A stretch of 64,000 bases of DNA from Candidatus Latescibacterota bacterium (GCA_965221775.1 CBDCSU010000005.1:448001-512000); one strand, 5' to 3'. Shown: positions 9,217-52,064, numbered from the stretch's first letter. The notes: generated from the sequence alone by a model not told the origin. Translations and numbers: made by a program.

Positions 9217-9263
9217 GATCGCCATCGTCGCCGGGGCCGCGCCGCTCCCGGTGCGGCCGGCGC

Positions 9264-12725: not shown

Positions 12726-12743
12726 GAGCAGGAGGAGCCTGAA

Positions 12744-16828: not shown

Positions 16829-16892
16829 GAGGACCCGCAAGTTGGGTCTTGTTCCTGCGGGGGCATATCTTGCCGGTCGCCGCCAGACAGAA

Positions 16893-17366: not shown

Positions 17367-17367
17367 G

Positions 17368-17538
17368 ATGATTGACGATCCAGTGGTCGAGGAGATTCGG
17401 GAACACCGCAAGGCCCACGCTGCCGAGCACGGCAATGACCTTGAACGTATTGTGCAGGACCTCCGCAAGCGCGAACGGGAGTCCGACCGGCCCTTGCTGA
17501 ATCCGGGGCCAAGGCAATTGGACCCGACCAGGAGATGA
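17368..17538 (+). CDS. Small putative antitoxin downstream of PIN toxin
   Basis: MIDDPVVEEIREHRKAHAAEHGNDLERIVQDLR; GGAGG RBS; starts 1 nt after the PIN stop. Confidence 0.75.
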   Translation: MIDDPVVEEIREHRKAHAAEHGNDLERIVQDLRKRERESDRPLLNPGPRQLDPTRR

Positions 17539-18626: not shown

Positions 18627-18639
18627 GTCCGAGTAGCCT

Positions 18640-22700: not shown

Positions 22701-22715
22701 CGGGTCAGCCTGTCC

Positions 22716-26371: not shown

Positions 26372-26480
26372 GTTCCACCTCGGAAGCCTGCGAGACGTGC
26401 TAAGGTAACCCGTTGCGGCGAAAATAGGCAATCAGAGTCTGACGCCGCCGGGCGGATGCCGACCGCGCCTGGCCGATGCC

Positions 26481-27314
26481 TCAGGCCCGCCGGAGTTCCT
26501 CGACGAAGGCGCGGTCCCTGGCGGCGTTGGCGAGGACGCCGGTCAGGTCGAAGGCCTCCCCCGGGGCGGGGGTGATGCCGGCGGTGAACTCCAGGCACAG
26601 GAGGCCGTCGAAGCCGGAGCGGCGCAGGTGGGGCAGGAACCTCCGGTAGTCGGTCCAGTCCCCTTCCTCCAGGAGCGCCGCGGCGCCGTCCTTCCGGTTC
26701 TGCAGATGCACGTGCCGGACGCAGGAGCCGAGAGCGTCGAAGGCGGCCATGGCCGCCGCCGTGTCGTGCTCGACGTAGGGCTGGAAGCAGATCCCGACGC
26801 CGTCCTCCGGCAGCTGCTTCATCAGGCGCCGGGTGCCGTCGAGAGTGTCGCACAGGGTCCCGCCGTGGGTCTCGAGGGTGAGCAGCATCCCCGCCTCGGC
26901 GGTGCGGCCGGCCAGGCGGCGCATGCCCTCCACCGAGCGGCGCCAGACGGCGTCACCGGCCTCGGCGCTGGCCACCCTCCCCGGGAAGATCTTGAAGACC
27001 GAGGCCCCGAGGCGGACCGCGGCGCCGACGAGCTGCTCCAGGCTCCGGCGCTCTTCCTCGTCCTGCGCGCCCTCCAGGTGGAAGGCGGGATAGGCGCCCA
27101 CGCCGACGGCGCGCATCCCCCGCGCCTCCAGGGCCGCGGCCAGCTGCTCGACCCCGGCCTCGGAGAGGCGGTCGAGGTGGTATCCCCACACCTCCAGGTC
27201 GCGGAACCCGGCCGCCGCCATCGGGTCGAGCAGATCCACCAGGGGCCGGGTGAGGGCGTGTTCCGCCGTCCAGCGGTTGGGCTCGAGCATGATCGTGTTG
27301 AGCAGCAGTTGCAT
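26481..27314 (-). CDS. Sugar phosphate isomerase/epimerase (TIM barrel)
   Basis: AGFRDLEVW, LETHGGTLCD, HVHLQN, FDGLLCLEF. Confidence 0.85.
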   Translation of the reverse strand: MQLLLNTIMLEPNRWTAEHALTRPLVDLLDPMAAAGFRDLEVWGYHLDRLSEAGVEQLAAALEARGMRAVGVGAYPAFHLEGAQDEEERRSLEQLVGAAVRLGASVFKIFPGRVASAEAGDAVWRRSVEGMRRLAGRTAEAGMLLTLETHGGTLCDTLDGTRRLMKQLPEDGVGICFQPYVEHDTAAAMAAFDALGSCVRHVHLQNRKDGAAALLEEGDWTDYRRFLPHLRRSGFDGLLCLEFTAGITPAPGEAFDLTGVLANAARDRAFVEELRRA

Positions 27315-27343
27315 GGTTGATCCCTCGGTTCGTGGCGGCGGCT

Positions 27344-28378
27344 TCAGCCCCCGGGGAAGCGCACCCCCAGTTTGACGTTCTCCTCCGGCGCGGCGGCGAT
27401 CTTCGGGTACTCCACCAGCAGGTCGTCGAAGTCGACGATGGGCCGCACCACCGGGACCGCGTCCAGGGAGCCGTCGCGCAGCAGGCCCCAGACGACGTCG
27501 AAGAGGCGGGCCTCGTCCCACCTCGGGTGATCCGGGTTGGGCTCGGAGCAGGCCCGCGAGAACACCAGGGTGGGGCGGTTCATGTGGGCCTCGGCGCCGA
27601 GGTCGAGGCCGGCGGGCCAGGCGCCCGGAGCGGCCCCCGGCACCACCGTCCCGAGGTAGGCGACGCCGCGCAGGGCCTGCTGCAGGGCCTCGTGGTGACC
27701 GCTGTAGTCGATGCAGACGTCGGCGCCGCGTCCGCCCGTGGCCCCGCGGATCTCCAGCCCCGCATCGCAGGCCGCCGGGTCGAGCGTCAGGTCGGCGCCG
27801 GTCTCCGCGGCCACCTGGCGGCGCAACTCGATGGGGTCGACGCCGATGACGGGAGACGCCCCCGAGAGGCGCGCCAGCTGCACCACCATGAGGCCGATCG
27901 CCCCGAGGCCGAAGACGGCCACCGCGTCGCCGAGTCGCACGTGGCCGTCGCGCACGGCGCCGAGGGCGAAGTCGGCCGGGTCGAGGCAGACCGCCGCCTG
28001 CCACGGCACGCCATCGGGCAGGTGCCGCACGCGGCCGCCCTCCCAGACGTGCTCCTCGCGGAAGGGGCCGTGGGCGAAGACGGTGTCACCCACGGCGACA
28101 CCCTCCACGGCGGGACCCGTCTCCACCACCTCGCCGACGCACATGTTCCCGAGGGTGACCGGGTAGCGGACGCCGGGCCGCTCGGCCCGGAAGAGGCGGC
28201 TCTCGCCGTCGAAGGCGCCGCGGGGGCCGGCGTATCCCCGGTACTGGGACATCTCGGTGCCGTGCTTGGCCGCCCCCCAGCGGCTGCGCACGCGCACCTG
28301 GGTCGGCGCCAGCGGCGGGGACTCGATCTCGTCGAAGGCCACCTGACCGGGGCCGGGGGCGATCAGTTGTCTCGGCAT
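27344..28378 (-). CDS. Zinc-binding alcohol dehydrogenase (MDR) family protein
   Basis: KHGTE, GNMCVGEVVE.G, VAVFGLGAIG. Confidence 0.9.
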   Translation of the reverse strand: MPRQLIAPGPGQVAFDEIESPPLAPTQVRVRSRWGAAKHGTEMSQYRGYAGPRGAFDGESRLFRAERPGVRYPVTLGNMCVGEVVETGPAVEGVAVGDTVFAHGPFREEHVWEGGRVRHLPDGVPWQAAVCLDPADFALGAVRDGHVRLGDAVAVFGLGAIGLMVVQLARLSGASPVIGVDPIELRRQVAAETGADLTLDPAACDAGLEIRGATGGRGADVCIDYSGHHEALQQALRGVAYLGTVVPGAAPGAWPAGLDLGAEAHMNRPTLVFSRACSEPNPDHPRWDEARLFDVVWGLLRDGSLDAVPVVRPIVDFDDLLVEYPKIAAAPEENVKLGVRFPGG

Positions 28379-35652: not shown

Positions 35653-36377
35653 CCCCCCTCCTTCTCAGCGCCACCGCCTTCGAGCAGGACCGGGTGGCGG
35701 GCGGCCTGGACCAGCCGCTGCGGCAGTCGGTGGCTGGCCGCCGGTGGACGCGTGGGGGCCTGGGGGGTCGGACGGTGCAGGTCGTGGAGACCGGCCTCGG
35801 CGCGGTGAACACGGCCCACGCCCTGACCCGCTGTCTGCAGATGGAGCTTCCCCCGTGGGTGCTGCAGTTCGGCGTGGGCGGCGCCTACGAGGGCGCCGGC
35901 CTCGGCCTGGGGGACTTGGCCGTGGCCTCGACGGAGAGCTTCGGCGACCTCGGCGTGGTCACCCCCGCCGGCTGGCGCTCCGTCGAGGAGATCGGCATCC
36001 CCGTGGCCGAGGCCGCCGGCGAGAGCCGCTACAACGAGTACCCCCTTGACGCTGAACTGGGCCGGGCCGCGGCCACGGCCCTGGAGGATCGCATGGAGGC
36101 CCGCGTGGCCCTGGGGCCCTTCGTCACCGTGCAGGCCTGCAGCGGCACGGCGGCCCTCGGCCGCGAGCGCGCCTCCCGGGCGCCCGGGGCCCTGTGCGAG
36201 AGCATGGAGGGGGCGGCGGCGGCCCAGCTCTGCTGGATGTACGGCGTGCCCCTGGTGGAGGTGCGCGCCATCAGCAACCGGGTGGAGGACCGGGACACGG
36301 CCGCCTGGAACCTGCCCCTGGCCAGCCGCCGCGCCCAGGAGGCGGCCCTCATCCTGGTGGAGGCGTTGCCCTCGTGA
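35649..36377 (+). CDS. mqnB: Futalosine hydrolase
   Basis: SATAFE, TGLGAVNTA, FGVGGAY, ESMEGAA, EVRAISNRVEDRD..W; directly upstream of mqnD; start assigned to a CTG (see findings). Confidence 0.85.
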   Translation: MTPLLLSATAFEQDRVAGGLDQPLRQSVAGRRWTRGGLGGRTVQVVETGLGAVNTAHALTRCLQMELPPWVLQFGVGGAYEGAGLGLGDLAVASTESFGDLGVVTPAGWRSVEEIGIPVAEAAGESRYNEYPLDAELGRAAATALEDRMEARVALGPFVTVQACSGTAALGRERASRAPGALCESMEGAAAAQLCWMYGVPLVEVRAISNRVEDRDTAAWNLPLASRRAQEAALILVEALPS

Positions 36378-37204
36378 GCGCTCCCCTCTCCCTCGGCTAC
36401 TCCCCCTGCCCCAACGACACCTTCATCTTCTACGCCCTCGTCCACGGGCGGGTCCCCGGGGCGCCGGCGGTGCAGGAGGTCCTCCTCGACATCGAAACCC
36501 TCAACGGCATGGCCGCCCGCTCCGAGCTGGACGTGGTGAAGGTCTCCTTCCACGCCCTGGGGCACCTCCTCGGCGACTACTGCCTGCTGCGCTCGGGCGG
36601 CGCCCTCGGCCGCGGCTGCGGACCCCTCGTCGTCGCCCGCGAGAGCATCGGGCCCGGCGAGCTGGCCCGCCTGCGGGTGGCCATCCCCGGGAAGCGGACC
36701 ACGGCGGCCCTGCTCCTGCGCCTCTTCGCCCCCGGCCTGGAGCGCACCGTGGAGATGCCCTTCCACCGCATCATGGGCGCCGTGCGCGACGGCGAGGCCG
36801 ACGCCGGGGTCATCATCCACGAGAGCCGCTTCACCTACCCCCGCTACGGGCTGCACCGCGTCCTCGACCTCGGCGAGTGGTGGGAGCAGACCACCGGCCA
36901 TCCCATCCCGCTGGGAGGCATCGCCGCCCGCCGCCGGCTGGGGGCCGCTGAGATCCGCCGCCTCGAGGACGGCCTGCGGCGCAGCGTCGAGTACGCCCAC
37001 GCCCATCCCGAGGAGGTGCGGGGCTACGTGGCCGGCCAGGCCCAGGAGATGGAGCCCGAGGTCATGGAGGCCCACATCGAGCTGTACGTGAACGACCATA
37101 CCCTCGACTACGGCGGCGACGGCCGGGCCGCCATCGAGGATCTGATGGCGCGAGCCGAGAGGGAGGGCATCTTGCCGGCCGGCGGCCCTCCCCTGCTCCT
37201 GTGA
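36374..37204 (+). CDS. mqnD: 1,4-dihydroxy-6-naphthoate synthase
   Basis: GYSPCPNDTFIF, DIETLN, GGALGRGCGPL, IIHESRFTY, PIPLGGI, HIELYVN; GTGA overlap. Confidence 0.96.
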   Translation: MSAPLSLGYSPCPNDTFIFYALVHGRVPGAPAVQEVLLDIETLNGMAARSELDVVKVSFHALGHLLGDYCLLRSGGALGRGCGPLVVARESIGPGELARLRVAIPGKRTTAALLLRLFAPGLERTVEMPFHRIMGAVRDGEADAGVIIHESRFTYPRYGLHRVLDLGEWWEQTTGHPIPLGGIAARRRLGAAEIRRLEDGLRRSVEYAHAHPEEVRGYVAGQAQEMEPEVMEAHIELYVNDHTLDYGGDGRAAIEDLMARAEREGILPAGGPPLLL

Positions 37205-37217
37205 CCCGGGAGGTGTC

Positions 37218-38252
37218 ATGAGACTGCTGCAGTTCCGCGACCCGGCCTCCGACCGGCCCGAGCATCTGGGGCTGGTGGACGGCGACGAGGTGATCGACCT
37301 GAGCGAGGGGGACGGCCCCGGCTCGGTGTACGAGCTCTACTACGGCTGTGGCGGCGACACCGACGGCTTCGGCGCGGCCCTGGAGAGCGCTGCGCGGGCG
37401 GCCTCCGGCCACCGGCGCCTGTCCCTGGCCGGCCTGCTCCAGGGGCGCGGACCCTCGGCCCCCCACCTGCTCAAGCCGGTGAGCGCCCCGGCGGACCGGC
37501 CCCGGGGCCTGCGCGTGTGGCTGGCGGGGGTCACCCACGAGGACAGCGCCAAGCTGCGCGAGATCGAGGCGCAGCAGGCCACGGGCGAGGCGGTGAACGT
37601 GTACGACCAGAAGTACCGCGAGTGCGCCGCCGGAGGCCGGCCGGAGCTGTTCTCCAAGGACGATCCCGCCGCCGTCGTCGGCCACGGCCAGGCCCTGACG
37701 CGGCCGGCGGAGACCGAGCGCCTGGTACCGGAGACGGAGCTGGTCACGGTGTACGGGCTCGACCGCGCCGGCCAGGTGGAGCGGCTCGGATACACCGGCG
37801 GCAACGACGCCACCGACAACGGCATGGAGGCGGCCAACCCCCTCAACCTGCCCCAGGCCAAGAACTGGGCCGGGGGCTGCGCCAGCCTGGGGCCGCTGCT
37901 GGTGACGGCCGACGAGTACGACGACCGCCGGGTCACGGTGAGCTGCGAGATCCTGCGCGCCGGCCGGCGGGTCGGCTTCAAGGAGGGGGACACCGGCCGG
38001 GACCACCTCAACATGCCCGACGGCCTGCTGCACATGGAGCGCACCCTCTTCCGCCGGATGCCCCTGGAGCCGGGGCAGCTGCAGGCCCTCTACTGGGGCA
38101 CGCCGATCGTGTTCTCGGAGGCGGATCTGGCCGACGGGCTGCAGGTGGGAGACGCGGTGCGCATGACCTTCTCCGGCGGGATCGGCACCCTGGAGAACGG
38201 GATCGAGCCCCTGGCGGCGACGGATCAGCTGCGGGGGCTGGAGGGGGGCTGA
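37218..38252 (+). CDS. Fumarylacetoacetate hydrolase family protein (2-keto-3-deoxy-pentonate dehydratase-like)
   Basis: WLAGVT, RPELFSK, VPETEL, GYTGGND, NPLNLPQAK; GGAGG RBS. Confidence 0.8.
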   Translation: MRLLQFRDPASDRPEHLGLVDGDEVIDLSEGDGPGSVYELYYGCGGDTDGFGAALESAARAASGHRRLSLAGLLQGRGPSAPHLLKPVSAPADRPRGLRVWLAGVTHEDSAKLREIEAQQATGEAVNVYDQKYRECAAGGRPELFSKDDPAAVVGHGQALTRPAETERLVPETELVTVYGLDRAGQVERLGYTGGNDATDNGMEAANPLNLPQAKNWAGGCASLGPLLVTADEYDDRRVTVSCEILRAGRRVGFKEGDTGRDHLNMPDGLLHMERTLFRRMPLEPGQLQALYWGTPIVFSEADLADGLQVGDAVRMTFSGGIGTLENGIEPLAATDQLRGLEGG

Positions 38253-41695: not shown

Positions 41696-43354
41696 TCAAC
41701 CGGAGCGCTCGCAGGTGCTGCCCGGCGCCAGCCGTTCCTCGCGCCACGGGCTCTCCTCGCCGTCGCCGGGGATTCTCCAGGAGAAGGCCAGCTGCGTCTC
41801 TCCCCCGTTGTGGAAGACCACCATCGTCGAGCGGCGGGTCGTGCCCGACGCGGTCCTGGTGGAGGCCGCCCTGCGCGAGGGGATCGACGCCGAGGACGAG
41901 ATCGCCTCGGCCGCTGACTGCTCCCCGGGAAGGGGGCGCACCAGGGAGAGCAGGGTCGCGGGCGGATGGCTCCTGCCGTCCTCCCGCCGGATCTCCATCA
42001 GCGGCCGGACCTCGCCCTGAATCTCCCGCGTCCCCAGCAGCAGCGGGCCGTAGCACGCCGTGACCGCTCCCTGCCCCCAGTTGCGGCCGTGTCCCGCGGC
42101 CACCGAGCAGACGGCGCCGCCCATGTCCGCGTGTTCCCGTCCGCCGCGCAGCACGCGCCGGGCCATCTGCAACCGCGTCGCGGCGCCGCGCAGGGCCCGC
42201 GCCGCGTGCCCGATCTCCCCCGTCAGCTGCCAAGCCAGGGTCAGGGTGGCCGTGGACGGCTCGCGGACCGGCTTCACCGATCCATCCTCGGACCACTCGC
42301 CCCAGAAGGCCATGTCCGCCCGCTTGCCGACCCCCGGCGCCCGGATGCGCCGCTCCTCGGGAAAGACCAGGGCCAGCCGCTCCGGCGGGCTCTCGGGCAG
42401 AGCTTCCAGCCCCGAGCGGATCTCCGCGTCGAGGCCGGTGTCGGCGAAGGTCCAGCGGTAGTAGCTCAGGGCCGCCGCCGCGGGATCGTTGCAGGGGTCG
42501 TCGAGGCTGGTCACCAGGGGCTCCACGATCCGCCTCGCCGCCTCCCGGAAGACCTCCTCGCCGGACAGCATCCACAGATCGCCCAGGGCGTAGACCGCGC
42601 CCGAGGCCAGCAGGTTCTCGATGCCGGCGAGCGGGTCCCCGGGAAGGTGGTGGGCGCTGGCAGCGATCCCGTGCAGACCTCTCGCGTCGACCTCGGCCTC
42701 GTCGAGCCCCTTGCCGTCGAGGGTCCACAGCAGCGGCATCGGCTCCGGCGCCGCCACCAGGCGCCCGGCCCGCTTGCGGCCATGGCGCAGGGCCCACTCC
42801 AGGTAGCGCTCCGCCCCCGTCACCCGGTGGGCGGCGAGGGCGATGTGGAGGAAGCGGAAGTGCTCGGCCAGCTCGAAGGCCTCGCTGTCGTCGTTGGTCA
42901 CACACCGGGTGCCGATGCGGTAGCCGACGAAGGTGTCCCGCGAGTCGTCGTACCACGGCGGGACCTCGGGCACCCAGTTGCCGATGTGCTCGGCGGCATC
43001 CGCCAGCAGCGAGACCGCCTCGGAATCCCGCGGCTGCAGGCCGATATAGCGCGGCAGGAAGAGCAGGAACGGTTCCGGCCCGTGATGGGCCTCGGCTTCG
43101 GGCTCGTACCCGTGGAGGCACTCGCGCTCCACCCAGCCCTTCAGAGCCGCCTTCAGCGCCTCGAAGTGGCGCAGGACCGCCTCGTCGCCGGTGACCAGGT
43201 AGTGGGGGAACCACGCGAGGGCATAGTTGGCCTCGTCCTCGCCGCCGTCGTTGGGGCCGGGCGGATCGAGGCGCCGGCTCTGACGGAGCCAGGCGTCCAT
43301 CTCGGACCGGAGGGCGGTGTAGGCGCTATAGCTTTGTTGAATCTGATCCTTCAT
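41696..43354 (-). CDS. Hypothetical protein (possible alpha/alpha toroid, glycosidase-like)
   Basis: 552-aa ORF with host-like codon use; helical repeats such as AHRVTGAERYLEWA and WMLSGEEVFREAA. Confidence 0.6.
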   Translation of the reverse strand: MKDQIQQSYSAYTALRSEMDAWLRQSRRLDPPGPNDGGEDEANYALAWFPHYLVTGDEAVLRHFEALKAALKGWVERECLHGYEPEAEAHHGPEPFLLFLPRYIGLQPRDSEAVSLLADAAEHIGNWVPEVPPWYDDSRDTFVGYRIGTRCVTNDDSEAFELAEHFRFLHIALAAHRVTGAERYLEWALRHGRKRAGRLVAAPEPMPLLWTLDGKGLDEAEVDARGLHGIAASAHHLPGDPLAGIENLLASGAVYALGDLWMLSGEEVFREAARRIVEPLVTSLDDPCNDPAAAALSYYRWTFADTGLDAEIRSGLEALPESPPERLALVFPEERRIRAPGVGKRADMAFWGEWSEDGSVKPVREPSTATLTLAWQLTGEIGHAARALRGAATRLQMARRVLRGGREHADMGGAVCSVAAGHGRNWGQGAVTACYGPLLLGTREIQGEVRPLMEIRREDGRSHPPATLLSLVRPLPGEQSAAEAISSSASIPSRRAASTRTASGTTRRSTMVVFHNGGETQLAFSWRIPGDGEESPWREERLAPGSTCERSG

Positions 43355-43554
43355 CCTGCCAAGGGCTCCCGTAATTGCAGAAAGACCTCAACCCTCGCTT
43401 GCCCTCAAGCTATGTCATGTCTGCCGGAAGCACACCGCGCCGTTCGCGGATCGGCGCGGGAACCCCCTCGCGAATCTGCGGCCGACAGTCGAACGCCATT
43501 CCATTCCGGGCTCACATTTCTTCGGAGGTCGACATCTCTCTTTCGTGCTGGCAT

Positions 43555-44247
43555 ATGAGAGTGGCCGCCTGCCTCTTCCTGCTTCTGCAGGGGTGCTCGG
43601 TCCAGGACGATACGTGGATGGGTCTCGGAGTCGAGCCCGAGAGTCGATGCTCCCCCTACAACCGCACGCCGGACTACCGGCACTCTCCACATCTGGAGCC
43701 CGCCATAGCGGCCAGGATGGGAGGCATCCGGTGCCGCTATACAGGGAGGGTTTACCGCAGCCTTCTACAGACCGACATCGAGCACGTGGTCGCCTTGAGC
43801 GAAGCCCACGACTCGGGCCTGTGCGCGGCGGATGCGGCGACGAAGCGGAGGTTCGCCAACGACCTGTTGAATCTGACGCTCTCCGATCCCGCCGTGAACT
43901 ACCAGAAGGGCGCGAAGGACGCCGGGGAGTGGATGCCGCGGATCGATCCACGCGGGTTTGCGGAAACCGTCATCCAGGTGAAGCGCAAGTATGGACTGAG
44001 CATCGACAGGAGGGAGCGGGCAGCCCTCGAGAGAGCCCTGGACGGCCACTGGGTGGCGCCTCCTGCATCCATGGGAGACCTGGCCGAGTTGCCGGAGGCC
44101 GGCCATCCTCTCGATCTGTGGGACGACAACGGCAACGGGCGGATCACCTGTGCGGAGGCAGAACGCCACGGCACCCCGGTGAAGCGCGGCCATCCGGCGT
44201 ACGTCTACATGAGGGACGGCGACGGCGACGGGTGGGTTTGTGAGTAG
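43555..44247 (+). CDS. Lipoprotein with HNH-type (DUF1524-like) nuclease and Excalibur Ca-binding domain
   Basis: Lipobox LLQGC; DIEHVVALSEA...FANDLLNL...N..KGAKD..EWMP; CAEA...HPAY..MRDGDGDGWVCE. Confidence 0.85.
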   Translation: MRVAACLFLLLQGCSVQDDTWMGLGVEPESRCSPYNRTPDYRHSPHLEPAIAARMGGIRCRYTGRVYRSLLQTDIEHVVALSEAHDSGLCAADAATKRRFANDLLNLTLSDPAVNYQKGAKDAGEWMPRIDPRGFAETVIQVKRKYGLSIDRRERAALERALDGHWVAPPASMGDLAELPEAGHPLDLWDDNGNGRITCAEAERHGTPVKRGHPAYVYMRDGDGDGWVCE

Positions 44248-44270
44248 GGGCGCCACCACATCGCGCGGCT

Positions 44271-44436
44271 TCTACCCCCCGCCCGCACTCGCGGGCAATT
44301 CGGCTCTCCAGCCAGGTGCAGCGAATGAGTAGCTGGGTAGGTCGGCAGCACCAGACCCGTAACCCCGACAAGCGCCAGATCGAACCTCAGCCCTGATGGC
44401 AGGGGCCAGTCCCGCAGCATCGGCTGTGCTCCGATG
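44271..44436 (-). pseudogene. Degenerate frameshifted copy of the 3' end of the acyltransferase gene (48771-48940)
   Basis: Encodes IGAQPMLRDWPLPSGLRFDLALVGVTGL and PRVRAGG-stop vs IGAQFAVRDWPLPSAVKFVLVLVAVTGF...PRVRAGG-stop. Confidence 0.88.
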
Positions 44437-44527
44437 CCGGGTCGAAGATCTCCGGACCGAGTCCGCAGGATCCCATGGCAAGGCACCGGACATCCTCCGT
44501 CCGATTGGCCTCAAGCGGCGACCGATC

Positions 44528-44545
44528 CAACTAAGATTTTAGTTG
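44528..44545. promoter_or_regulatory. Palindromic operator 1, putative BlaI-family box
   Basis: CAACTAA-GATT-TTAGTTG, perfect 7-4-7 inverted repeat overlapping the -35. Confidence 0.85.
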
Positions 44546-44571
44546 ACATGCGCCGCGGCGCCGGGTATGTT
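44543..44571 (+). promoter_or_regulatory. Sigma70-type promoter of the blaI-like operon
   Basis: TTGACA (44543-44548), 17-nt spacer, TATGTT (44566-44571). Confidence 0.85.
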
Positions 44572-44572
44572 C

Positions 44573-44592
44573 TCAACTAAACCCTTAGTTGA
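44573..44592. promoter_or_regulatory. Palindromic operator 2, putative BlaI-family box
   Basis: TCAACTAA-ACCC-TTAGTTGA over the predicted +1, just before AGGAG RBS. Confidence 0.85.
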
Positions 44593-44605
44593 TAGGAGCA
44601 GCCGC

Positions 44606-45013
44606 ATGGCTCAAAGAGGGGGACCCGACAAGAGGCTGACCCCGCTCGAGACACTGATCATGAACGTCCTCTGGGACGATTCGCCCGCCGCCGTCCGCCA
44701 AGTTCAGCAGCGGCTCGAGGCGGTCAGGCCCATGGCCTACAACACCGTCCTGACCATGATGCGCATTCTGCGCGAGAAGGGCTTCCTGGTGTCGGAGCGC
44801 GAGGGCCGGTCCGACCTCTACCGACCGGTGGTGACGCGCGAGGACATGGCGCGGCGGTCCCTGGGCGACGTCATGGACTCCTTCTTCTCCGGCTCGGCCG
44901 AGGCGCTGGTCAGCCAGCTGCTGGACGGCCAGTCCCTCACCGAGGAGGAGCTGAGATCGATCCGCGCCGAGCTGGACCGGGCCCTCCAGCGCAGAAGGGG
45001 GAAGCGGCGATGA
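44606..45013 (+). CDS. BlaI/MecI/CopY family transcriptional repressor
   Basis: LTPLETLIMNVLW, MAYNTVLTMMRIL.EKGFL, FFSGS...LVSQL; ATG 44606 after AGGAG. Confidence 0.95.
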   Translation: MAQRGGPDKRLTPLETLIMNVLWDDSPAAVRQVQQRLEAVRPMAYNTVLTMMRILREKGFLVSEREGRSDLYRPVVTREDMARRSLGDVMDSFFSGSAEALVSQLLDGQSLTEEELRSIRAELDRALQRRRGKRR

Positions 45014-46842
45014 GCGCGGCCCTGAACGGGCTGGGCAACCAGCTCTTCGCCTGGCTGGGCCCGCTGAGCATCGAGCTGGTGGGGCTGGCGGTCCTGGTGC
45101 TGGCGGCTTGCCGTCTGGTGAAGTCGCCGGCCCTGCGCCACCTGTTGTGGCTGGCCGTGCTCGTCAAGCCGATCGCCGCCGTTGTGGTCAGCTCCCCCTA
45201 TACGGTATTCGCGCCCCTGGCGGCGTTCGTGCAGCCCGGCTGGGATGCCCTCCCTGCCTGGAGGGTTGAGCACCTGACGCTGACGCCCCTGGCAGCGGCT
45301 CCCGCGGCCTTCGCCACAAGCAGCGTGCCGTTTACCCCTGCCGCCTGGGGAGCGCTCCTGTGGCTCGTGGGCGCGACGTTGCTCATCGGGAGGACCCTGG
45401 CCGGCTTCGGCATCCTCCGGCGACTCCGGCGGCAGGCGCATGTGCAACGAGAGGGTCCGCTCTTCGAGGCTCTGCGGCGGGCGCGCGCGTCCCTCGACTG
45501 TCACCCCGGGGTCGAGGTGGCCACCTCTCCCTCCATCCGCTCGCCCATGGTCCTCGGCATCCTCAGACCGCTCATCGTCGTTCCCGCCGATCTCGTGCAG
45601 AGACTGCGGGGTGACGAGTTGACCCTGGTCCTCATGCACGAACTGGCCCACGTGCGCCGCTGCGACAATCTCACATTGCTGCTGCAGAGACTGGTCACGG
45701 CCGTCCTGTTCTTCCACCCCGCCCTGTGGCTGTGCGGCCGCATGCTGCGGCGCGAAGCCGAGCAGGCCTGCGACGATCTCGTGGTCGGCGTCACCGCCCG
45801 CCCGGAAGCGTATGCGCGCGGCCTCACCTTAGTCGCCGAAGAGGCGGCTCACTCCAACCCACGAACCAGGAGAGTCCCCATGATGAGCACCTTTGCCGCC
45901 ACCGAGTCCCATCTCTCGCGGAGGATCCGCCGGACTCTGCACGGTGGTGCGCGCCGGATGGGAACGCGGGCGCGCGTGCTTGCGGTGGTACTGCTGTTCC
46001 CTCTGGCCGCCGTGACCCTGCCCTCGTACGGCGCTGCAGACAACTGGGTGGCGGCCGAGACGGCTTCGGCTATCGCGGCCGACTCCAGTGCTGCTGCCAC
46101 CGGCCGGGACGAAGTCGTGACGCTCGAGGAACTCACCGACAGAATGGCCAAGGGCATACGAATGGTGGAGGAAACTCACACCGAGGGAGTGCGCCGTCGC
46201 ATTGTGGCGGCGCCCGAGAGCGGGGTGAAGGTGGTGATCCAGGAGCTGGATGTGGCGGGCAGCCGCAAGTCGGACCCAGATGAAGCAGTCGCTCGGGCGA
46301 TCGAGCAGATAGAGGATCTCCAGTCAGAAGCTATCGGGAGAATCGCAGCCCAAGCCAACGAACTGACCGGAGAGGAGTCGTTGCACAGGATCCTTGAAGC
46401 CCTCGATGAGAGTCGTATCATGCGAGAGGCGGTGGCCACCGACCCGGATGAATGGTCGGATGAGTTAAAGGCACAGCTGCTCGCCCTCAAGCCGGACAGT
46501 ACCATCGAGGAGATCGTCGAGTTTGTGCGCGGCGTTCGCAGTGGAACCGTGCTGTATGGGTACTCCGTGCGCGGAGAGGATCGCATGGAACCCGAGGGTG
46601 TCTTCCTCATTATGGTGGATCAGGACGGCAACATGAGGCTGAACGGCAAACCCGTGACCTTCGCGAACCTTGGAGACGAACTGGGGAACCAGAGAAGCAA
46701 GCTGGACACCACCTCCATGATCATCATTCGGAGCGCCGAGGGGGTAGCCCGCGGGCGGATCGTCGAGATCATGGACATCGCACGCCAAGCGGGGCTTGTC
46801 GATCAGGTCCTTGTCGATCAGATCCTTGCCACGGAGCCATAG
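45010..46842 (+). CDS. BlaR1-like M56 metallopeptidase with C-terminal ExbD/TolR-like domain
   Basis: ALRHLLW, SPMVLGILRP, HELAHVRRCD, FFHP..W, EAEQACD; C-terminal IMVDQDG...NGKPV...IIIR...GRIVEIMDIARQAGL; ATGA overlap. Confidence 0.9.
   Translation: MSAALNGLGNQLFAWLGPLSIELVGLAVLVLAACRLVKSPALRHLLWLAVLVKPIAAVVVSSPYTVFAPLAAFVQPGWDALPAWRVEHLTLTPLAAAPAAFATSSVPFTPAAWGALLWLVGATLLIGRTLAGFGILRRLRRQAHVQREGPLFEALRRARASLDCHPGVEVATSPSIRSPMVLGILRPLIVVPADLVQRLRGDELTLVLMHELAHVRRCDNLTLLLQRLVTAVLFFHPALWLCGRMLRREAEQACDDLVVGVTARPEAYARGLTLVAEEAAHSNPRTRRVPMMSTFAATESHLSRRIRRTLHGGARRMGTRARVLAVVLLFPLAAVTLPSYGAADNWVAAETASAIAADSSAAATGRDEVVTLEELTDRMAKGIRMVEETHTEGVRRRIVAAPESGVKVVIQELDVAGSRKSDPDEAVARAIEQIEDLQSEAIGRIAAQANELTGEESLHRILEALDESRIMREAVATDPDEWSDELKAQLLALKPDSTIEEIVEFVRGVRSGTVLYGYSVRGEDRMEPEGVFLIMVDQDGNMRLNGKPVTFANLGDELGNQRSKLDTTSMIIIRSAEGVARGRIVEIMDIARQAGLVDQVLVDQILATEP
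45480..45785 (+). repeat. 306-bp near-identical copy of 47383-47688 (M56 catalytic core)
   Basis: About 7 substitutions counted by eye; constant offset of 1903 nt. Confidence 0.92.
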
Positions 46843-46915
46843 CCGATAGGCCGCGGCTATAGAGCCGGCCGGAGTTGGGCCGAACCGAAACCGGAAAGTG
46901 GACGAGGAGACGGTG

Positions 46916-48763
46916 ATGAGTTGGACCCTGAACGAACTGGGACATCAGCTCCTCGGCTGGTTGGTTCCGTTGAGCATCGAGCTGGCGGCACTGGCGGTCC
47001 TGGTGCTGGCCGCCGGCCGCCTGCTGCCGATCCGGTCGCCGGCCTTGCGCCACCTCCTGTGGCTGGCCGTGCTCGTCAAGCCGCTCGTCTCCCTGCTGGT
47101 CAACTCGCCCTGCACGGTATACGCGCCGCTGGTGCCCCTGGCAGAGCCCGCCTCCCCCGTCGCGGATCTGCATGTCGAACACTTGGTGGTACAGGCCGCG
47201 GCCTCCCCCCCCATCGCCGAGAGCAGCCCGCGTCTTACGGCAGTCGGCTGGGGCATGGTGCTCTGGCTGGTTGGCGCGGCCCTGCTCACCGGACGGATCC
47301 TGATCGGCCACCGCGTCCTTCGTCGCCTGCGGCAGGAGGCCCATCTGCAGCGGGGCGGTCCGCTCTTCGCGGCCCTGCGGCAGGCGCGCGCGTCCCTCGA
47401 CTGTCACCCCGGGGTCGAGGTGGCCACCTCTCCCTCCATCCGCTCGCCCATGGTCCTCGGCATCCTCAGACCGCTCATCGTCGTTCCCGCCGATCTCGTG
47501 CAGAGACTGCGCGGTGACGAGTTGACCCTGGTCCTCATGCACGAGCTGGCCCACGTGCGCCGCTGCGACAACCTCACATTGCTGCTGCAGAGACTGATCA
47601 CGGCCGTCCTGTTCTTCCACCCAGCCCTGTGGCTGTGCGGCCGCATGTTGCGGCGCGAAGCCGAACAGGCCTGCGACGATCTCGTGGTATCCGCCGCCGG
47701 CCGCGCGGAAGCCTATGCGCGGGGACTCACCCTGGTCGCCGAAGGGGCCCACTCAAACCCGCCAGCGAGGAGAGTCCCCATGTCGAGCACCCTTGCCGCC
47801 ACCGAATCCGACCTCTCGCAGAGGATCCGCCGGACGCTGGACGGTGGTGCATCCCGGATGGGCCCGCGGGCGCGTTTGCTGGCGGTGGTACTGCTATCCC
47901 CTCTGGCCGCCGTGACCCTGCCTGCTTACGGCGTTGCCGACAGCGCCACGGACGAAGTGACGGCAGCCGCTGGAGTCGCGTCTGCTTCCGTTTCTGCTGA
48001 CGGAATCCTGGGAGAGGAGGCGGCCGCCGATTCGGAGGAGCAGCGGAGAACGGTGCTTGTGGAACCCGGACCCGACAGCACCACCGAGTGGACCGTGGAG
48101 GCGATGGAACGCCGCATCCGGGAGTCGATCCGGCGCCGCATTCAGGAGGCGACCGATAGCGGTGAACCTGCTCCGGAGCTATGGCTCAGAATCCTCGATA
48201 ACCACAGCATGATCAGGGATATGGCCGAGGCGGGACTCAAGTGCCGGGAATGCGCTCGCATCAAGCGGGGTACGGCTCAAAGGGACCTCCGGAACCTGTT
48301 TCTCGTGGTGTATCGAGACGGCAGCATGAAGCTGAACGAGAAGCCAGTGACCCTCGGAACCCTCGGAGACGAGTTGCAGGCGAGGAGACAACTGGTCGTA
48401 AACAACAGGATGGTCATCCAGCACGACGGACGCGCCCCGGAGGGACAGGTCGTTCAAGTCATGGATGTCATACGCCAGGCAGGGCTGGTATCGCTCGGCT
48501 ATCCGGTCATCGCCACCGAAGAGGGGCACGGGACCTTGCGGGAGGCGCTGGCGACCGATCCGGAGGAATGGACGGAAGAGTTGAAGGACCGGGTTCTCGC
48601 GCTCCAACCTGGCAGTACTATCGAGGAGGTCTCCGACCTGGTGCGGCACCGGAGGAACTGGCTCAACCCGGGAACGACCGATCCTGACAGGTGGTCCGAC
48701 GAACCTTCCAGCACCGTCGACCAGGACTGTCGAGGGTGTCCGCAAGAGACGGCAACAGACTAG
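46916..48763 (+). CDS. Second BlaR1-like M56 metallopeptidase with ExbD/TolR-like domain
   Basis: Same M56 motifs (HELAH, EAEQACD); LVVYRDG...NEKPV...MVIQHD...GQVVQVMDVIRQAGL; ATG 46916 after GAGGAG. Confidence 0.9.
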   Translation: MSWTLNELGHQLLGWLVPLSIELAALAVLVLAAGRLLPIRSPALRHLLWLAVLVKPLVSLLVNSPCTVYAPLVPLAEPASPVADLHVEHLVVQAAASPPIAESSPRLTAVGWGMVLWLVGAALLTGRILIGHRVLRRLRQEAHLQRGGPLFAALRQARASLDCHPGVEVATSPSIRSPMVLGILRPLIVVPADLVQRLRGDELTLVLMHELAHVRRCDNLTLLLQRLITAVLFFHPALWLCGRMLRREAEQACDDLVVSAAGRAEAYARGLTLVAEGAHSNPPARRVPMSSTLAATESDLSQRIRRTLDGGASRMGPRARLLAVVLLSPLAAVTLPAYGVADSATDEVTAAAGVASASVSADGILGEEAAADSEEQRRTVLVEPGPDSTTEWTVEAMERRIRESIRRRIQEATDSGEPAPELWLRILDNHSMIRDMAEAGLKCRECARIKRGTAQRDLRNLFLVVYRDGSMKLNEKPVTLGTLGDELQARRQLVVNNRMVIQHDGRAPEGQVVQVMDVIRQAGLVSLGYPVIATEEGHGTLREALATDPEEWTEELKDRVLALQPGSTIEEVSDLVRHRRNWLNPGTTDPDRWSDEPSSTVDQDCRGCPQETATD

Positions 48764-48771
48764 GAGCCGCT

Positions 48772-50436
48772 CTACCCCCCCGCCCGCACCCGCGGCCCGT
48801 TCAACAGCCGCCCCAGCCAGGTGTAGCGCACAAGCACCTGGTAGACGACCAGCAGGAAACCGGTAACCGCCACCAGCACGAGGACGAACTTCACCGCCGA
48901 GGGCAGCGGCCAGTCGCGCACGGCGAACTGCGCTCCGATGATCAGCGGCACGTGGGCCAGGTACAACCAGTACGACGAGTCCGACAAGTAGCGGATGATC
49001 CGATTCTCGCGGGCGCATATCCTGCGAAACAGGCCCATGAAGCCGAAGGCCATCATCCAGGGATAGATCGCCTGCAACACCACCGCCTCGGTCCGGGCCG
49101 TCTCCGGCCCGAGAATGCCGTCGCCCAGTCCGAAGGCGCCCGTGGCTGCCCCCAGACCCAGCGGGAAGAGGACCAGGAGTCCCGTCGGGAGCCCCAGCCA
49201 CCACCACTTCCCCACCCGGCCTTCGCGGTCGTCGCAGTCGAAGTAGAGGGCGCCGAAGGCAAAGAACATGGCGTAGTAGAGGAAGACGTGGGGCATGGGC
49301 AGCAGGCCCAGCGAGGTATCCGCCCCGAAACCGGGAATGACCAGTCCCATGAGCGACTGCGGGACCAGGGTCAGGGGGATGAGCCAGAGGAACCGCGCCG
49401 GCGACAGGACCAGCCACTGCGGCGGCTCCGGGCACTTGAGCCAGCCCGTCAGTGCGGTGACGAGGGCGAAGAGAAGCACGAACCAGCAGAGGAACCACAG
49501 GAACCAGAGATGGGAGAAGAGTGGCGCCGAGAAGACGGGAGCCTCCATCGCCTTCACATACCGGAACCCGGGTGACACCTCCTCCGGCCTGGCGGTCTCC
49601 TCGCGATCATCGCCGGAAGCGGATCCTTCGAGCAGTGCGGAGATGTGAAGGCGTCCGGCCTCTACCTGCCCTTCGTCGAACTCGATCTGCAGCAGTCCCG
49701 CCAGGTAGCGGGTGAGGCCCCAGTCCACCTCCAGGGCATCCCGGGGGGTCTCTCCCCTGTGGTTCTTCGCGGCCGGATCCGCCCCGTGCCGAAGCAGCAG
49801 CTCGGCGACTTCGGTCCTTCCCAGGAAGGCGGCCGCGTGCAGCGGCGTTCCGCCGTCCTTGCCGCGGCCATCCACGTCGGCCCCGTTCCCCAGCAGCCCT
49901 TCGGCAACCTCCACCCGGCCGGCCAGGGCCGCCCACACGAGGGGGGTGATTCCGAAGACCGGATCGATCCCCTCCATGTCGGCCCCCTTCGCCAGGTGAC
50001 GCTCCACGGCGGCCGCATCGCCGTCCCTGGCGGCGGTCCAGATGCTGTCCTCGGCGGCGGCCTTCCCGTCCTCGTAGACGGAGGCCATGGCCCAGCCGCT
50101 GACCCAGTTCACCGCGGGAACGATGGTGACAAGCCCGAGCAGGAATGGCAGGAAGACGCGGCGCAGGCGATGGGAGAGGAGCGACCTCAGGCCGCGGCGG
50201 CGCCAGAGCATGGCGGTGAAGAAGCCGCTGAGCAGGAAGAACACGGGCATGCGGAAGCCGTGGATGGCGGCGAACAGCAGGCCGTAGGACTCGCTCTGCC
50301 GGGTATCCTGCACCGGCCAGGGGAAGGGCGCGAAGGAGAGCCCGGCGTGCAGAACGATGCCGAGGAGCATCGCCGCGGCGCGCAGGGCGTCGAGGTCGTG
50401 GCGGCGGGGGTCAGGGGGCGGTGCGGGCGGGGTCAT
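48772..50436 (-). CDS. Acyltransferase family 3 (OpgC/MdoC-like) with inserted ankyrin repeats
   Basis: RRHDLDALRA, IHGFRMPVFF, HLWFLWFL, SYWLYLAH; GITPLVWAA, GGTPLHAAA, GETPRD ankyrin motifs. Confidence 0.92.
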   Translation of the reverse strand: MTPPAPPPDPRRHDLDALRAAAMLLGIVLHAGLSFAPFPWPVQDTRQSESYGLLFAAIHGFRMPVFFLLSGFFTAMLWRRRGLRSLLSHRLRRVFLPFLLGLVTIVPAVNWVSGWAMASVYEDGKAAAEDSIWTAARDGDAAAVERHLAKGADMEGIDPVFGITPLVWAALAGRVEVAEGLLGNGADVDGRGKDGGTPLHAAAFLGRTEVAELLLRHGADPAAKNHRGETPRDALEVDWGLTRYLAGLLQIEFDEGQVEAGRLHISALLEGSASGDDREETARPEEVSPGFRYVKAMEAPVFSAPLFSHLWFLWFLCWFVLLFALVTALTGWLKCPEPPQWLVLSPARFLWLIPLTLVPQSLMGLVIPGFGADTSLGLLPMPHVFLYYAMFFAFGALYFDCDDREGRVGKWWWLGLPTGLLVLFPLGLGAATGAFGLGDGILGPETARTEAVVLQAIYPWMMAFGFMGLFRRICARENRIIRYLSDSSYWLYLAHVPLIIGAQFAVRDWPLPSAVKFVLVLVAVTGFLLVVYQVLVRYTWLGRLLNGPRVRAGG

Positions 50437-50510
50437 CGAGGAACCTTGCAGTCTCCAGTAACGTCCTGTACATCGGGGCCTTGCCGCCCTTTAATCCAGG
50501 AGGACCAGCC

Positions 50511-52064
50511 ATGCATGCAGCAGCCATCCCTGTCGTGAACCGGGCGGTATTGCCGCTGGTGGTACTCCTCGCGGCCGCGGCCACCCCCGGCGGCGCCGCC
50601 GCCACCAGCCACGCTGACACCAGCCACGCCGACACCACCAGCCAGGCGGACACCCCCCCCAGCCACGCGGCCACCCCCGGCCACGCGGACACCGCCGGCT
50701 TCGCGGACACCGGCCAGGGGCCCTTCTCCACCCTCGTCCCCGACGAGGACCCCGACAGCCTCGGCGTGGAACGCGTCGGCGAGATCGTGCTCTTCCTCGC
50801 TCCCCGGGAAGAGGAGGTGCCTTGGGGGACCGACCTCTATCTGGCGGGGGACCACGCGCTGATGGGGGATTTTCGCAGCCGCGTCCATTTCGTCGATATC
50901 TCCGATCCTGCCGACATGCGCAAGGTAGCCGAGGTCCGCACCCCCGGGCCTGCGGTGGACATCAAGATCTCCGGTGATCTGGCGGTGATAGGGGTGCAGG
51001 AGACGAACATCGATATGGATGTGGACTTCGGGTTGCTGATCCTCGACATCTCCGATCCGGCCAATCCCGTCGAGATCTCGCGGCTCGAGGAGCCAGGCTG
51101 GCGAGGCGTCCACAATCTCTTCATCGACCGCGACCGCCTCTATCTGGCTCACATGGACAGCCCGGGCCTGAGCATCGTCGACATATCCGATCCGGCGGCG
51201 CCCGTGGTCTCCGGCTCCTGGCGGCGCGAGAGCGACCTGCTGATCCACGACATCTTCATCCGCGACGGCATCGCCGTCGTCAGCGACTATTTTTTCGGGC
51301 TGATCCTCCTCGACCTCACCGACCCGGACGCACCCGCCCTGTTGGCGGCCCTGCCCTTCCCGGAAGGCATCCACAGCGCCTGGGCCGAGGGGGACTACGT
51401 CTACTGCAACCAGGAGTTCGGCGGCTGGGATCAGCGTCTCCATGTCGTCGATATCGCCGACCCGCGGCAGCCCCGGCTGATCCACTCCTTCGGCATGCAG
51501 CCGCCGCCTCACGGTGAGATCCTCGGCCCGCACAACCCGTGGGTCCGGGACGGGCTGCTGTACTGGGCCTGCTACGACGCGGGGTTGCGGGTCTTCGACC
51601 TGACCGACCCGGCGCGGCCGGTGGAAGCCGGCTACCACACCTATCCGGGCTCCGCCTGGAGCGCCCAGCCCCACGACGACGGCCTGGTCTACGTCGCCGA
51701 CGGCGCGGTGGGCCTCCAGGCCTACCGGATCACCCTCCCGTCGGCGGAGACCGCGGTGGGCCATGAGCGGGTGGATGGCCGGCCTTCTGCCTTCCATCTG
51801 GCGCAGAACTACCCCAATCCCTTCAACCAGTCGACGGTGATCCGCATCGGCCTGGACACCGCGGCCGACATGGAGCTGACCGTGTTCAACATGAGCGGAC
51901 AGCGGGTCGCGACCCTGGCCCGGGGGCCCCATCCGGCGGGAACCCATTCCTTCGTCTGGGATGGACGCGACCACCGCGGGTCGGAGATGGCTTCGGGCGT
52001 CTACGCCTTCCGGCTCCGGGCCGGCGGACGGGAGCAGACCCGCAAGCTGCTGCTCCTGCGCTGA
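50511..52064 (+). CDS. Secreted LVIVD-repeat protein with C-terminal FlgD-Ig / T9SS type A-like domain
   Basis: Signal peptide; repeated L.I.DISDP..P; LAQNYPNPFN...WDGRD..G..MASGVY...TRKLLLLR; ATG 50511 after AGGAGG. Confidence 0.88.
   Translation: MHAAAIPVVNRAVLPLVVLLAAAATPGGAAATSHADTSHADTTSQADTPPSHAATPGHADTAGFADTGQGPFSTLVPDEDPDSLGVERVGEIVLFLAPREEEVPWGTDLYLAGDHALMGDFRSRVHFVDISDPADMRKVAEVRTPGPAVDIKISGDLAVIGVQETNIDMDVDFGLLILDISDPANPVEISRLEEPGWRGVHNLFIDRDRLYLAHMDSPGLSIVDISDPAAPVVSGSWRRESDLLIHDIFIRDGIAVVSDYFFGLILLDLTDPDAPALLAALPFPEGIHSAWAEGDYVYCNQEFGGWDQRLHVVDIADPRQPRLIHSFGMQPPPHGEILGPHNPWVRDGLLYWACYDAGLRVFDLTDPARPVEAGYHTYPGSAWSAQPHDDGLVYVADGAVGLQAYRITLPSAETAVGHERVDGRPSAFHLAQNYPNPFNQSTVIRIGLDTAADMELTVFNMSGQRVATLARGPHPAGTHSFVWDGRDHRGSEMASGVYAFRLRAGGREQTRKLLLLR

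Follow-up and report, generated by a model that had tools for sequence, protein, structure and literature searches.

ExbD-like periplasmic modules on two BlaR1-type M56 proteases encoded with a BlaI-family repressor in Candidatus Latescibacterota

The operon described here lies in a stretch of 64,000 nucleotides from a Candidatus Latescibacterota bacterium (GCA_965221775.1, CBDCSU010000005.1:448001-512000), which is referred to as the window and is numbered from its first letter. Open reading frame (ORF) calling places three co-directional genes within 44528-48763; these, and the features given below unless stated otherwise, lie on the + strand. The first gene encodes a 135-residue winged-helix repressor of the BlaI/MecI/CopY family (44606..45013). 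The other two encode tandem M56-family proteases, M56-A (610 residues, 45010..46842), whose gene overlaps the stop of the repressor gene by 4 nt, and its paralogue M56-B (621 residues, 46898..48763). Each protease is predicted to be a BlaR1-like inner-membrane protein that carries one module of the ExbD periplasmic-domain type. A promoter with two operators, a blaI-like gene and two M56 proteases with intact HELAH motifs had been described in an earlier note made from the sequence alone, and all are borne out by the promoter scan, motifs and profile matches set out below.

The operon begins with a sigma-70-type promoter, TTGACA-17 nt-TATGTT (44543..44571), which matches the consensus at 10 of 12 positions; the promoter scan gave 2 promoter-like sites against 0.3 expected. 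Two perfect 18-bp palindromes, CAACTAA-N4-TTAGTTG, bracket the -35 and -10 hexamers. Operator 1 (44528..44545) overlaps the -35 hexamer, and operator 2 (44574..44591) lies past the -10 hexamer and ahead of the ribosome-binding site, overlapping the transcription start region. The 16-nt operator core has 4 matches in the window at up to 2 mismatches, against 0.02 expected, and the perfect copies are operators 1 and 2 only.

A genome scan found 32 related loci (L001-L032). The first 25 come from metagenome-assembled genomes (MAGs) labelled mostly Latescibacterota, and also Gemmatimonadaceae, Gemmatimonadetes or uncultured; L026-L032 are from Planctomycetota-type MAGs. Paired ACTAA-N4-TTAGT sites are present in 22 of the 25 loci L001-L025, the exceptions being L021 and L024, where the record ends before the expected place, and L025, which has one site. 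The start-to-start spacing of the operators is 46 nt in the window operon and 44-46 nt in its relatives. In an alignment of 12 loci the flanks vary, but no change is seen in either palindrome, in the -35 hexamer or in an AAGG ribosome-binding site, and the -10 hexamer is conserved. This invariance of the operators supports autoregulation, and we infer that the repressor controls its own operon through the paired palindromes. The operon itself is the visible regulon in the window. The G+C content is 0.66-0.68 across 44000-50000, below most of the window, and at third codon positions (GC3) it is 0.80 in M56-A and M56-B against 0.9-0.98 in most of the window; these low values in the operon and its neighbours may reflect a different history or expression.

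The longest ORF for the repressor runs from a TTG at 44543 to 45013. This start is unlikely because it lies inside the promoter, and the ATG at 44606, 7 nt after GGAG, is the likelier one. The product matches Penicillinase_R (PF03965) at 1.8e-30 and 106.1 bits (cut-off 22.6) over positions 1-114 of the 115 in the profile. In the PDB it aligns end to end with Mycobacterium tuberculosis BlaI (2g9w, 1e-10), MecI (5e-7) and BlaI (1e-4). The scores against the NCBIfam models BlaI_of_BCL, MecI and CopY_TcrY (41.6, 24.7 and 50.8 bits) are under the cut-offs of 180, 250 and 122, which places the protein in the BlaI/MecI/CopY family and not among the equivalogs. At the position of N101-F102, which we take to be the cleavage site in the dimerisation domain of BlaI and MecI, the window repressor has Q-L and M. 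tuberculosis BlaI has H-F. A blaI orthologue stands immediately upstream of the M56 gene in 31 of the 32 loci, a linkage that the earlier note had proposed for checking; the sole exception is L021, the record of which begins inside the M56 gene.

Both proteases match Peptidase_M56 (PF05569), M56-A at 2e-38 and 132.7 bits and M56-B at 1.4e-37 and 129.9 bits (cut-off 31). The HELAH motif is at residue 210 in M56-A and 215 in M56-B, and H210, E211, H214 and E251 are invariant in the family alignment. The protease domain of M56-A aligns to residues 109-258 of Staphylococcus aureus BlaR1 (8exp). By hydropathy, transmembrane helices fall at residues 19-37, 45-63, 108-126 and 317-335. Lysine plus arginine counts are 0 for the N-terminus, 2 for the loop at 38-44, 1 for the loop at 64-107 and 29 for the region 127-316, and there are none in the first 15 residues past the fourth helix (TM4). 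The part of M56-A that follows TM4 is acidic, with 52 aspartate and glutamate against 29 lysine and arginine residues. BlaR1 itself has both termini outside and a cytoplasmic protease loop. Hydropathy and charge thus predict for M56-A and M56-B the same N-out/C-out topology, with the last 275 residues in the periplasm; the concern that the ExbD-like segment might lie on the cytoplasmic side is answered by the same counts.

In M56-A, the four transmembrane helices and the cytoplasmic protease domain take up residues 1-340 and are followed by an acidic linker with helices (341-470), a helical module of about 40 residues here called DPDEW (471-512) and the ExbD-like module (about 528-604). The periplasmic order in M56-B is a degenerate DPDEW, the ExbD-like module, a second DPDEW and a short tail. 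Neither protein gave a match at E ≤ 0.1 to any transpeptidase or beta-lactamase family in Pfam, nor to TonB_C (PF03544). With the NCBIfam model blaR1_generic, whose cut-off is 400 bits, the two proteins reach 92.3 and 91.5 bits; the match covers residues 116-311, the protease part only, in agreement with the earlier suggestion that a penicillin-binding domain is absent.

The ExbD-like modules are encoded at 46579..46830 in M56-A and 48275..48529 in M56-B. Against Pfam ExbD (PF02472, cut-off 25.4) they score 26.4 and 29.2 bits, over positions 49-120 and 57-121 of the 128 in the profile, which is the periplasmic part only. The N-terminal pore helix of ExbD is missing from both proteins, and no hydrophobic segment lies between TM4 and the module. 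A profile was built from an alignment of 36 distinct modules, taken from the window and the related loci, in which six columns are invariant and ten more nearly so. Searched against the PDB it gave 7 matches at E ≤ 1, of which 6 are ExbD (2e-6 to 3e-4, residues 61-133 of the Escherichia coli protein) and none is TolR.

The AlphaFold2 (AF2) model of the M56-A module has a predicted local distance difference test score (pLDDT) of 79.5, a predicted template modelling score (pTM) of 0.67 and the topology b-b-b-a-b-a-b. Foldseek matched it to the ExbD structures 8pek, 8vgd, 8p9r and 8vgc at E-values of 7e-7 to 5e-5. Against solved ExbD domains the target-normalised template modelling (TM) scores are 0.66-0.87 and the root mean square deviation (r.m.s.d.) is 1.8-3.3 Å; on 8vgd, 8p9r and 8vgc it is 1.8-2.0 Å over 72-75 columns. 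TolR ranks below ExbD by fold, with 5by4 at 2e-3 and 2jwk at 0.03. A search of the ESM Atlas for look-alikes of the periplasmic part gave no usable match. Profile and model together indicate, well above what chance would give, that M56-A and M56-B each carry one ExbD periplasmic-domain module. The segment of about 70 residues that had been put forward as ExbD- or TolR-like is in this way upheld, and the M56-A module is predicted to adopt the ExbD fold.

The closeness of these modules to true ExbD proteins is apparent from a search of the module profile against 1.84 billion representative proteins, which gave 622 matches at E ≤ 1e-3 and 41 at E ≤ 1e-10. The best match beyond the family, P0124, is a canonical ExbD of 139 residues with the pore helix and its Asp and a Pfam ExbD match that spans positions 6-127. 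Its periplasmic domain is 60% identical to the M56-A module. Its close relatives, among those listed, are ordinary ExbDs of 133-165 residues (82-94% identical) and, where named, Latescibacterota or Gemmatimonadetes ExbD. One of these relatives, P0362, is 76-80% identical to both modules of L010.

A tree was calculated for 117 periplasmic domains over 77 columns by a quick search and rooted at the midpoint, with many forks left unresolved. In this tree 18 Latescibacterota ExbDs form one group (Shimodaira-Hasegawa-like approximate likelihood ratio test, SH-aLRT, 86), nested in a clade (SH-aLRT 96) that holds 30 of the 36 M56 modules, that of M56-B included. The M56-A module joins at the next level out, in the clade (SH-aLRT 82) that encloses this one, and the modules of M56-B type form a clade of their own (SH-aLRT 98). 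Among the other 46 canonical ExbDs, 43 lie across the midpoint root and the remaining 3 outside the module clades. All 36 modules are nearer to a Latescibacterota ExbD (best identity 51-86%; 61% for M56-A, 59% for M56-B) than to other canonical ExbDs (35-50%). The nesting and the identity ranking argue that the sensor modules are copies, made within the lineage and still close, of its own ExbD periplasmic domain.

The same module recurs on other proteins. Of 150 listed representatives, 48 were scanned with Pfam, comprising all 26 of at least 300 residues and 22 shorter ones. Nine of the 26 long proteins combine M56 with ExbD. Two of these (P0122 and P0125) resemble the Latescibacterota family; the others (P0143, P0150, P0154, P0169, P0182, P0210 and P0225) are distant and mostly bear two modules in tandem. 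In the tree the modules of P0143, P0150, P0182 and P0225 fall into groups outside the Latescibacterota clade, which is compatible with independent captures; a word-indexed search with P0150 returned P0150 itself only. Further long proteins join ExbD to FecR (P0175 and P0254, each with four matched stretches), to sigma-70 region 4 in an ECF-sigma fragment (P0168) or to a SecDF head (P0245), or consist of ExbD repeats alone (P0163, P0212, P0217, P0248 and P0249). A Peptidase_S49 fusion of 247 residues (P0227) is among the 22 shorter proteins. The module is present in three to six tandem copies in P0175, P0254, P0168, P0163, P0212, P0217 and P0249, none of which has M56. These multi-copy proteins suggest a wider, undescribed use of the module in transmembrane signalling.

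A word-indexed search with residues 400-610 of M56-A gave 146 proteins at E ≤ 1e-3, the best 120 of which were examined, with modules and M56 domains counted by purpose-built hidden Markov models (HMMs). An M56 domain is present in 109 of the 120, and 106 of these 109 have one to three ExbD-like modules (55 with one, 49 with two and 2 with three). The few names given (5 of the 120) read 'biopolymer transporter ExbD' or 'M48 family metalloprotease' and belong to MAGs of Gemmatimonadota or Gemmatimonadetes. Twenty architectures occur among the 120, the commonest being M-E-E-d-d-d (34), M-d-E (20, the type of M56-A) and M-E-d-d (19); M56-B, with its ExbD module ahead of DPDEW, is of a rarer type. 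Many relatives terminate in an immunoglobulin (Ig)-like domain resembling FlgD_ig or a type IX secretion system (T9SS) tail, which both window proteins lack. The combination of M56, ExbD and DPDEW is, by these counts, the mark of a conserved family with no fewer than 106 members, found in MAGs labelled Latescibacterota and Gemmatimonadota.

Among the related loci, ExbD-like modules occur in 22 of L001-L025 and in none of the seven Planctomycetota-type loci. The three that lack them, L014, L023 and L025, have M56 proteins with DPDEW or Ig modules. No fewer than 9 of the 25 loci have tandem M56 pairs (L002, L003, L004, L007, L010, L011, L016, L020 and L022), and the nearest relatives, L002-L004, share the order of A-type followed by B-type. 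In 11 of the 25 loci (L005, L022, L011, L014, L016-L020, L023 and L024) the operon has two extra genes, for example at 5748-7585 in L005 and 8073-9895 in L022. The first encodes a small protein with the M56 TM4 segment and an Ig-like domain; the second encodes an exported protein of 433 residues that is helical towards its N-terminus and has a C-terminal AhpC/TSA-thioredoxin domain with a WCSPC motif. In loci of the L005 type these genes lie between the operators and blaI. Neither was found in the window operon. As judged from its domain and motif, this putative periplasmic thiol-disulfide oxidoreductase is the only visible non-regulatory output of the family.

The DPDEW module lies at 46420..46545 in M56-A and, after the ExbD-like module, at 48536..48658 in M56-B. 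It was delineated with an internal profile and has the consensus W..A.ATDPDEWSDELK.QLLALKP.STIEEIAE.VR; searches of Pfam and the PDB gave no relative below E 0.07, and the module is a candidate new 40-residue repeat family. Proteins of the family have one to five copies, with a ratio of nonsynonymous to synonymous substitution rates (dN/dS) of 0.18-0.31. The M56-A copy is helical at pLDDT 76-90 in a whole-protein AF2 model, of which nothing but the local secondary structure at residues 421-603 is relied on. In a Foldseek search with that whole-protein model ExbD again ranked first, weakly (E 0.04). Both the repeat and the variable-module family are additions to what the earlier note had described.

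M56-A and M56-B share 74% identity in the M56 part and 40% in the ExbD-like module. At the DNA level a tract of about 300 bp that includes the HELAH codons is 95-100% identical between the two (45484-45780 and, as its approximate partner, 47387-47683), against 48-88%, mostly 70-88%, outside it. This looks like recent gene conversion between tandem paralogues. The earlier note read the two proteins as two receptors feeding one repressor; they may act as independent inputs or together in one hetero-oligomer, and may work as homo- or hetero-oligomers. A prediction of the complex of the two modules scored 0.01 and 0.05 against a mark of 0.32, which speaks neither for nor against pairing. M56-B stops at the point where the L002 and L021 orthologues go on into a FlgD_ig-like domain, and appears to be C-terminally truncated or remodelled. 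It also has two periplasmic CxxC motifs, CREC (residues 449-452, 48240-48250), which precedes the ExbD-like module, and CRGC (611-614, 48726-48737), which sits in its private tail. A family redox or metal site was ruled out for this pair, since none of 117 relatives has a periplasmic CxxC; the motifs are private to M56-B and outside the family mechanism.

By analogy with BlaR1/BlaI, the operon is tentatively read as an autoregulated proteolytic switch in which the penicillin sensor has been replaced and contact with the Ton machine serves as the input, a reading that is favoured here and falls somewhat short of probable. A change at the periplasmic module would activate the cytoplasmic zinc protease, which would cleave the BlaI-family repressor, and loss of the repressor would derepress the operon together with any unlinked genes that bear the operator. 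As for the input, the module would capture a TonB-like strand or pair with native ExbD, and the switch would report the occupancy or energisation of the Ton motor. In E. coli, according to PMC10907165, the ExbD periplasmic homodimer takes up a single strand of TonB, the membrane-proximal D-box, which lodges between the last strand of one protomer and that of the other; the L132Q substitution abolishes this capture. Since the modules are 51-86% identical to native ExbD, a shared partner, either TonB-like strands or native ExbD itself, is the simplest supposition, and with the D-box capture in mind contact with the Ton machine is the likeliest input. The earlier note had suggested sensing of Ton or Tol motor or cell-wall state. 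The Ton part of that proposal is strengthened by the finding of near-copies of the lineage's own ExbD. The Tol and cell-wall parts gain no such support, and TolR ranks lower by fold and is absent from the profile matches at E ≤ 1.

A more specific form of the Ton-contact reading is possible but doubtful. Here the M56 sensors would mimic the stator, their decoy ExbD pairing with native ExbD or competing for the TonB D-box, and Ton-motor occupancy or proton-motive energisation would be converted directly into BlaI proteolysis. The same decoy would have been recruited independently by FecR anti-sigma and sigma-type proteins, in line with the recurrence of the module on M56 (9 proteins, 7 of them beyond the Latescibacterota family), FecR (2) and sigma-70 region 4 (1). 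Mimicry of this kind would amount to a type of trans-envelope signalling input not recognised before, alongside the classical TonB-dependent route of cell-surface signalling.

Several observations weigh against Ton contact as the input. The last strand, which is the D-box-binding edge in E. coli ExbD, differs in both window modules. In M56-A it is an off-canonical five-residue repeat, LVDQV-LVDQI, and in M56-B it is altered by an SLGYP insertion (GLV-SLGYP-VIATE), modules of this type having the pattern GLV-x-L-G/V-YP-V. The ExbD-like module is under moderate constraint (dN/dS 0.45-0.68), with values above those of the M56 domain in 2 of 3 comparisons and above those of DPDEW in all 3, and it is missing from 3 of the 109 family members. 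No TonB, ExbB or canonical ExbD gene, and no member of the MotA/TolQ/ExbB family, was found among the 43 ORFs scanned in the window. Within 8 kb on either side of the 32 loci the ExbD-like HMM matched M56-family ORFs only, and TonB and canonical ExbD were not found in these flanks, which were not scanned for ExbB. Further copies of the operator are likewise missing, both from the window beyond the promoter of the operon and from the 8-kb flanks of every related locus. The thioredoxin-like operon member in 11 of 25 relatives hints at envelope redox and not nutrient uptake. Finally, the whole-protein model of M56-A is poor (pLDDT 53, pTM 0.25) and gives no inter-domain geometry.

Alternatively, the module would serve as a scaffold, for dimerisation or for docking to peptidoglycan, that keeps the receptor in position, with the signal read by the DPDEW repeats, the helical linker or the C-terminal FlgD_ig/T9SS-tail-like Ig domain of the relatives. 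This is unlikely, and it draws on the changing number and order of modules across the 20 architectures, on the better conservation of DPDEW (0.18-0.31 against 0.45-0.68) and its repetition up to five times, and on the three family members and the loci L014, L023 and L025 that do without the ExbD-like module. The periplasmic domains of ExbD and TolR are known dimerisers, and TolR binds peptidoglycan. A mere scaffold, however, need not have stayed so near to native ExbD, nor would its independent recruitment by M56, FecR and sigma-type proteins be expected.

A broader ligand is an improbable alternative, in which the ExbD-like dimer would act as a general sensor of envelope stress by capturing exposed beta-strands of envelope proteins that are unfolded or mislocalised, much as DegS senses the tails of outer-membrane proteins. 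The switch would then induce repair, for instance through the thioredoxin-like protein of the relatives. ExbD is known to bind by beta-augmentation, capturing a strand of its partner, and the AhpC/TSA-thioredoxin protein is encoded in the operon of 11 of the 25 loci; the window operon, however, has no such gene, no chaperone or protease genes are linked, and the closeness to native ExbD argues for a specific, shared partner.

It is more improbable still that at least M56-B is a degenerating duplicate and that the ExbD-like segments are leftovers which play no part in signalling. M56-B may indeed be decaying, since the C-terminal Ig-like domain with which its L002 and L021 orthologues end is missing from it. 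In L001, the nearest syntenic locus, only the A-type gene is present; the dN/dS of the linker against L001 is 1.14, and the GC3 of both genes is under that of most neighbouring genes. Set against this, both ORFs are intact, the HELAH motif and all invariant M56 residues are present, dN/dS is below 1 for the ExbD-like modules and for DPDEW, and the invariant and nearly invariant columns persist across the 36 modules. The recent gene-conversion tract, moreover, keeps the active-site regions identical.

A conventional beta-lactam-sensing BlaR1/BlaI resistance switch, which the family names and the pairing of M56 and BlaI genes would suggest, is effectively excluded by the missing transpeptidase or penicillin-binding domain (none at E ≤ 0.1), by blaR1_generic scores of 92 bits against 400 and, as the earlier note had remarked of beta-lactamases, by the absence of any beta-lactamase or penicillin-binding protein family from the 43 window ORFs scanned (the ORF-less intervals 9216-12806, 16400-18640, 22700-24245 and 26431-27344 being unscanned).

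If Ton contact is indeed the input, the operon would reveal a means by which a cell keeps watch on its Ton motors and would explain the repeated acquisition of Ton-machine parts by M56 and FecR-type proteins. It would also offer an initial functional entry to signalling in the uncultured phylum Latescibacterota. As the module is a close paralogue of a protein with a solved binding mode, its candidate ligands can be named and assayed. Should the module be only a scaffold, it would still define a new sensor-domain family alongside the new 40-residue repeat.

The genes around the operon are of several kinds. Directly upstream (43375-44247, +) is a gene for a GmrSD_C (HNH-type nuclease) protein with a C-terminal Excalibur calcium-binding domain. 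Convergent to M56-B is an Acyl_transf_3/OpgC(MdoC)-like membrane acyltransferase (48772-50436, - strand) with an ankyrin-repeat insert at about residues 130-235, which is unusual in a bacterial membrane acyltransferase; an orthologue 89% identical occupies the same place in L001. It is followed by an LVIVD-repeat beta-propeller protein (50421-52064, +) with a FlgD_ig/Por_Secre_tail-like C-terminus, a likely type IX secretion substrate; this type of Ig-like tail also ends many of the inner-membrane-anchored M56 relatives. Long ORFs with a good codon-position GC signal are found at 41696-43354 (-), with no Pfam match at E 0.1, and at 5624-7975 (+), 18640-20187 (+), 21453-22700 (-) and 36029-37219 (-), with none at E 1e-5.

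In the literature, a survey of about 15,000 M56 proteins in 254 architectures (10.64898/2026.04.08.717257) states that most BlaR-like proteins are not beta-lactam sensors, that the signals sensed are almost entirely unknown and that non-canonical M56 sensors are nearly always beside BlaI. TonB_C ranks second there among the C-terminal domains found on M56 proteins; nine architectures have at least 100 entries, Plug and CarboxypepD_reg_2 being among them and ExbD not. Fusions of M56 to Ton parts are therefore common, a wider pattern with which the Ton-contact reading agrees. The survey also describes CenIR as a non-canonical BlaR system characterised genetically, and 10.1101/2023.07.07.548152 notes M56-TonB_C fusions as uncharacterised. 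A full-text literature search, covering few subscription journals, gave no description of the M56 plus ExbD architecture or of sensors with an ExbD domain. The architecture may be tabulated without comment in the supplement to the survey. The earlier statement that no system of this architecture has been characterised agrees with that search and with the nine architectures of the survey.

Compared with BlaR1/BlaI and MecR1/MecI of Staphylococcus and Bacillus, the operon has the same order of repressor then sensor, an autoregulated promoter with paired palindromic operators, a Penicillinase_R repressor, a four-helix M56 gluzincin domain with HExxH and a downstream conserved Glu, and an extracytoplasmic C-terminal sensor region. 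It differs from them in that ExbD-like and DPDEW modules take the place of the penicillin-binding domain, in having two tandem sensors and no linked resistance gene, and in the Q-L at the N101-F102 position. Non-canonical BlaR homologues, such as CenIR of Clostridioides difficile and the M56-TonB_C proteins of Bacteroidota, likewise are M56 sensors that lack a transpeptidase domain and nearly always have BlaI beside them; in the window, however, the borrowed Ton part is the periplasmic domain of the stator protein ExbD. With ExbD itself the modules share the fold and, for the lineage's own protein, much of the sequence. Unlike ExbD they have neither pore helix nor proton-binding Asp and no linked exbB, they are tethered to a protease through a linker of about 120-190 residues, and both window copies have a changed last strand. 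FecR-type cell-surface signalling differs in its use of site-1 and site-2 proteases and an extracytoplasmic function (ECF) sigma factor in place of M56 and a BlaI repressor, and the window has no linked transducer gene. The proposed switch would nevertheless resemble it in having an inner-membrane signalling protein, the periplasmic part of which meets the Ton-dependent uptake apparatus, and an output through proteolysis of a transcription regulator, and ExbD is also found fused to the FecR proteins P0175 and P0254.

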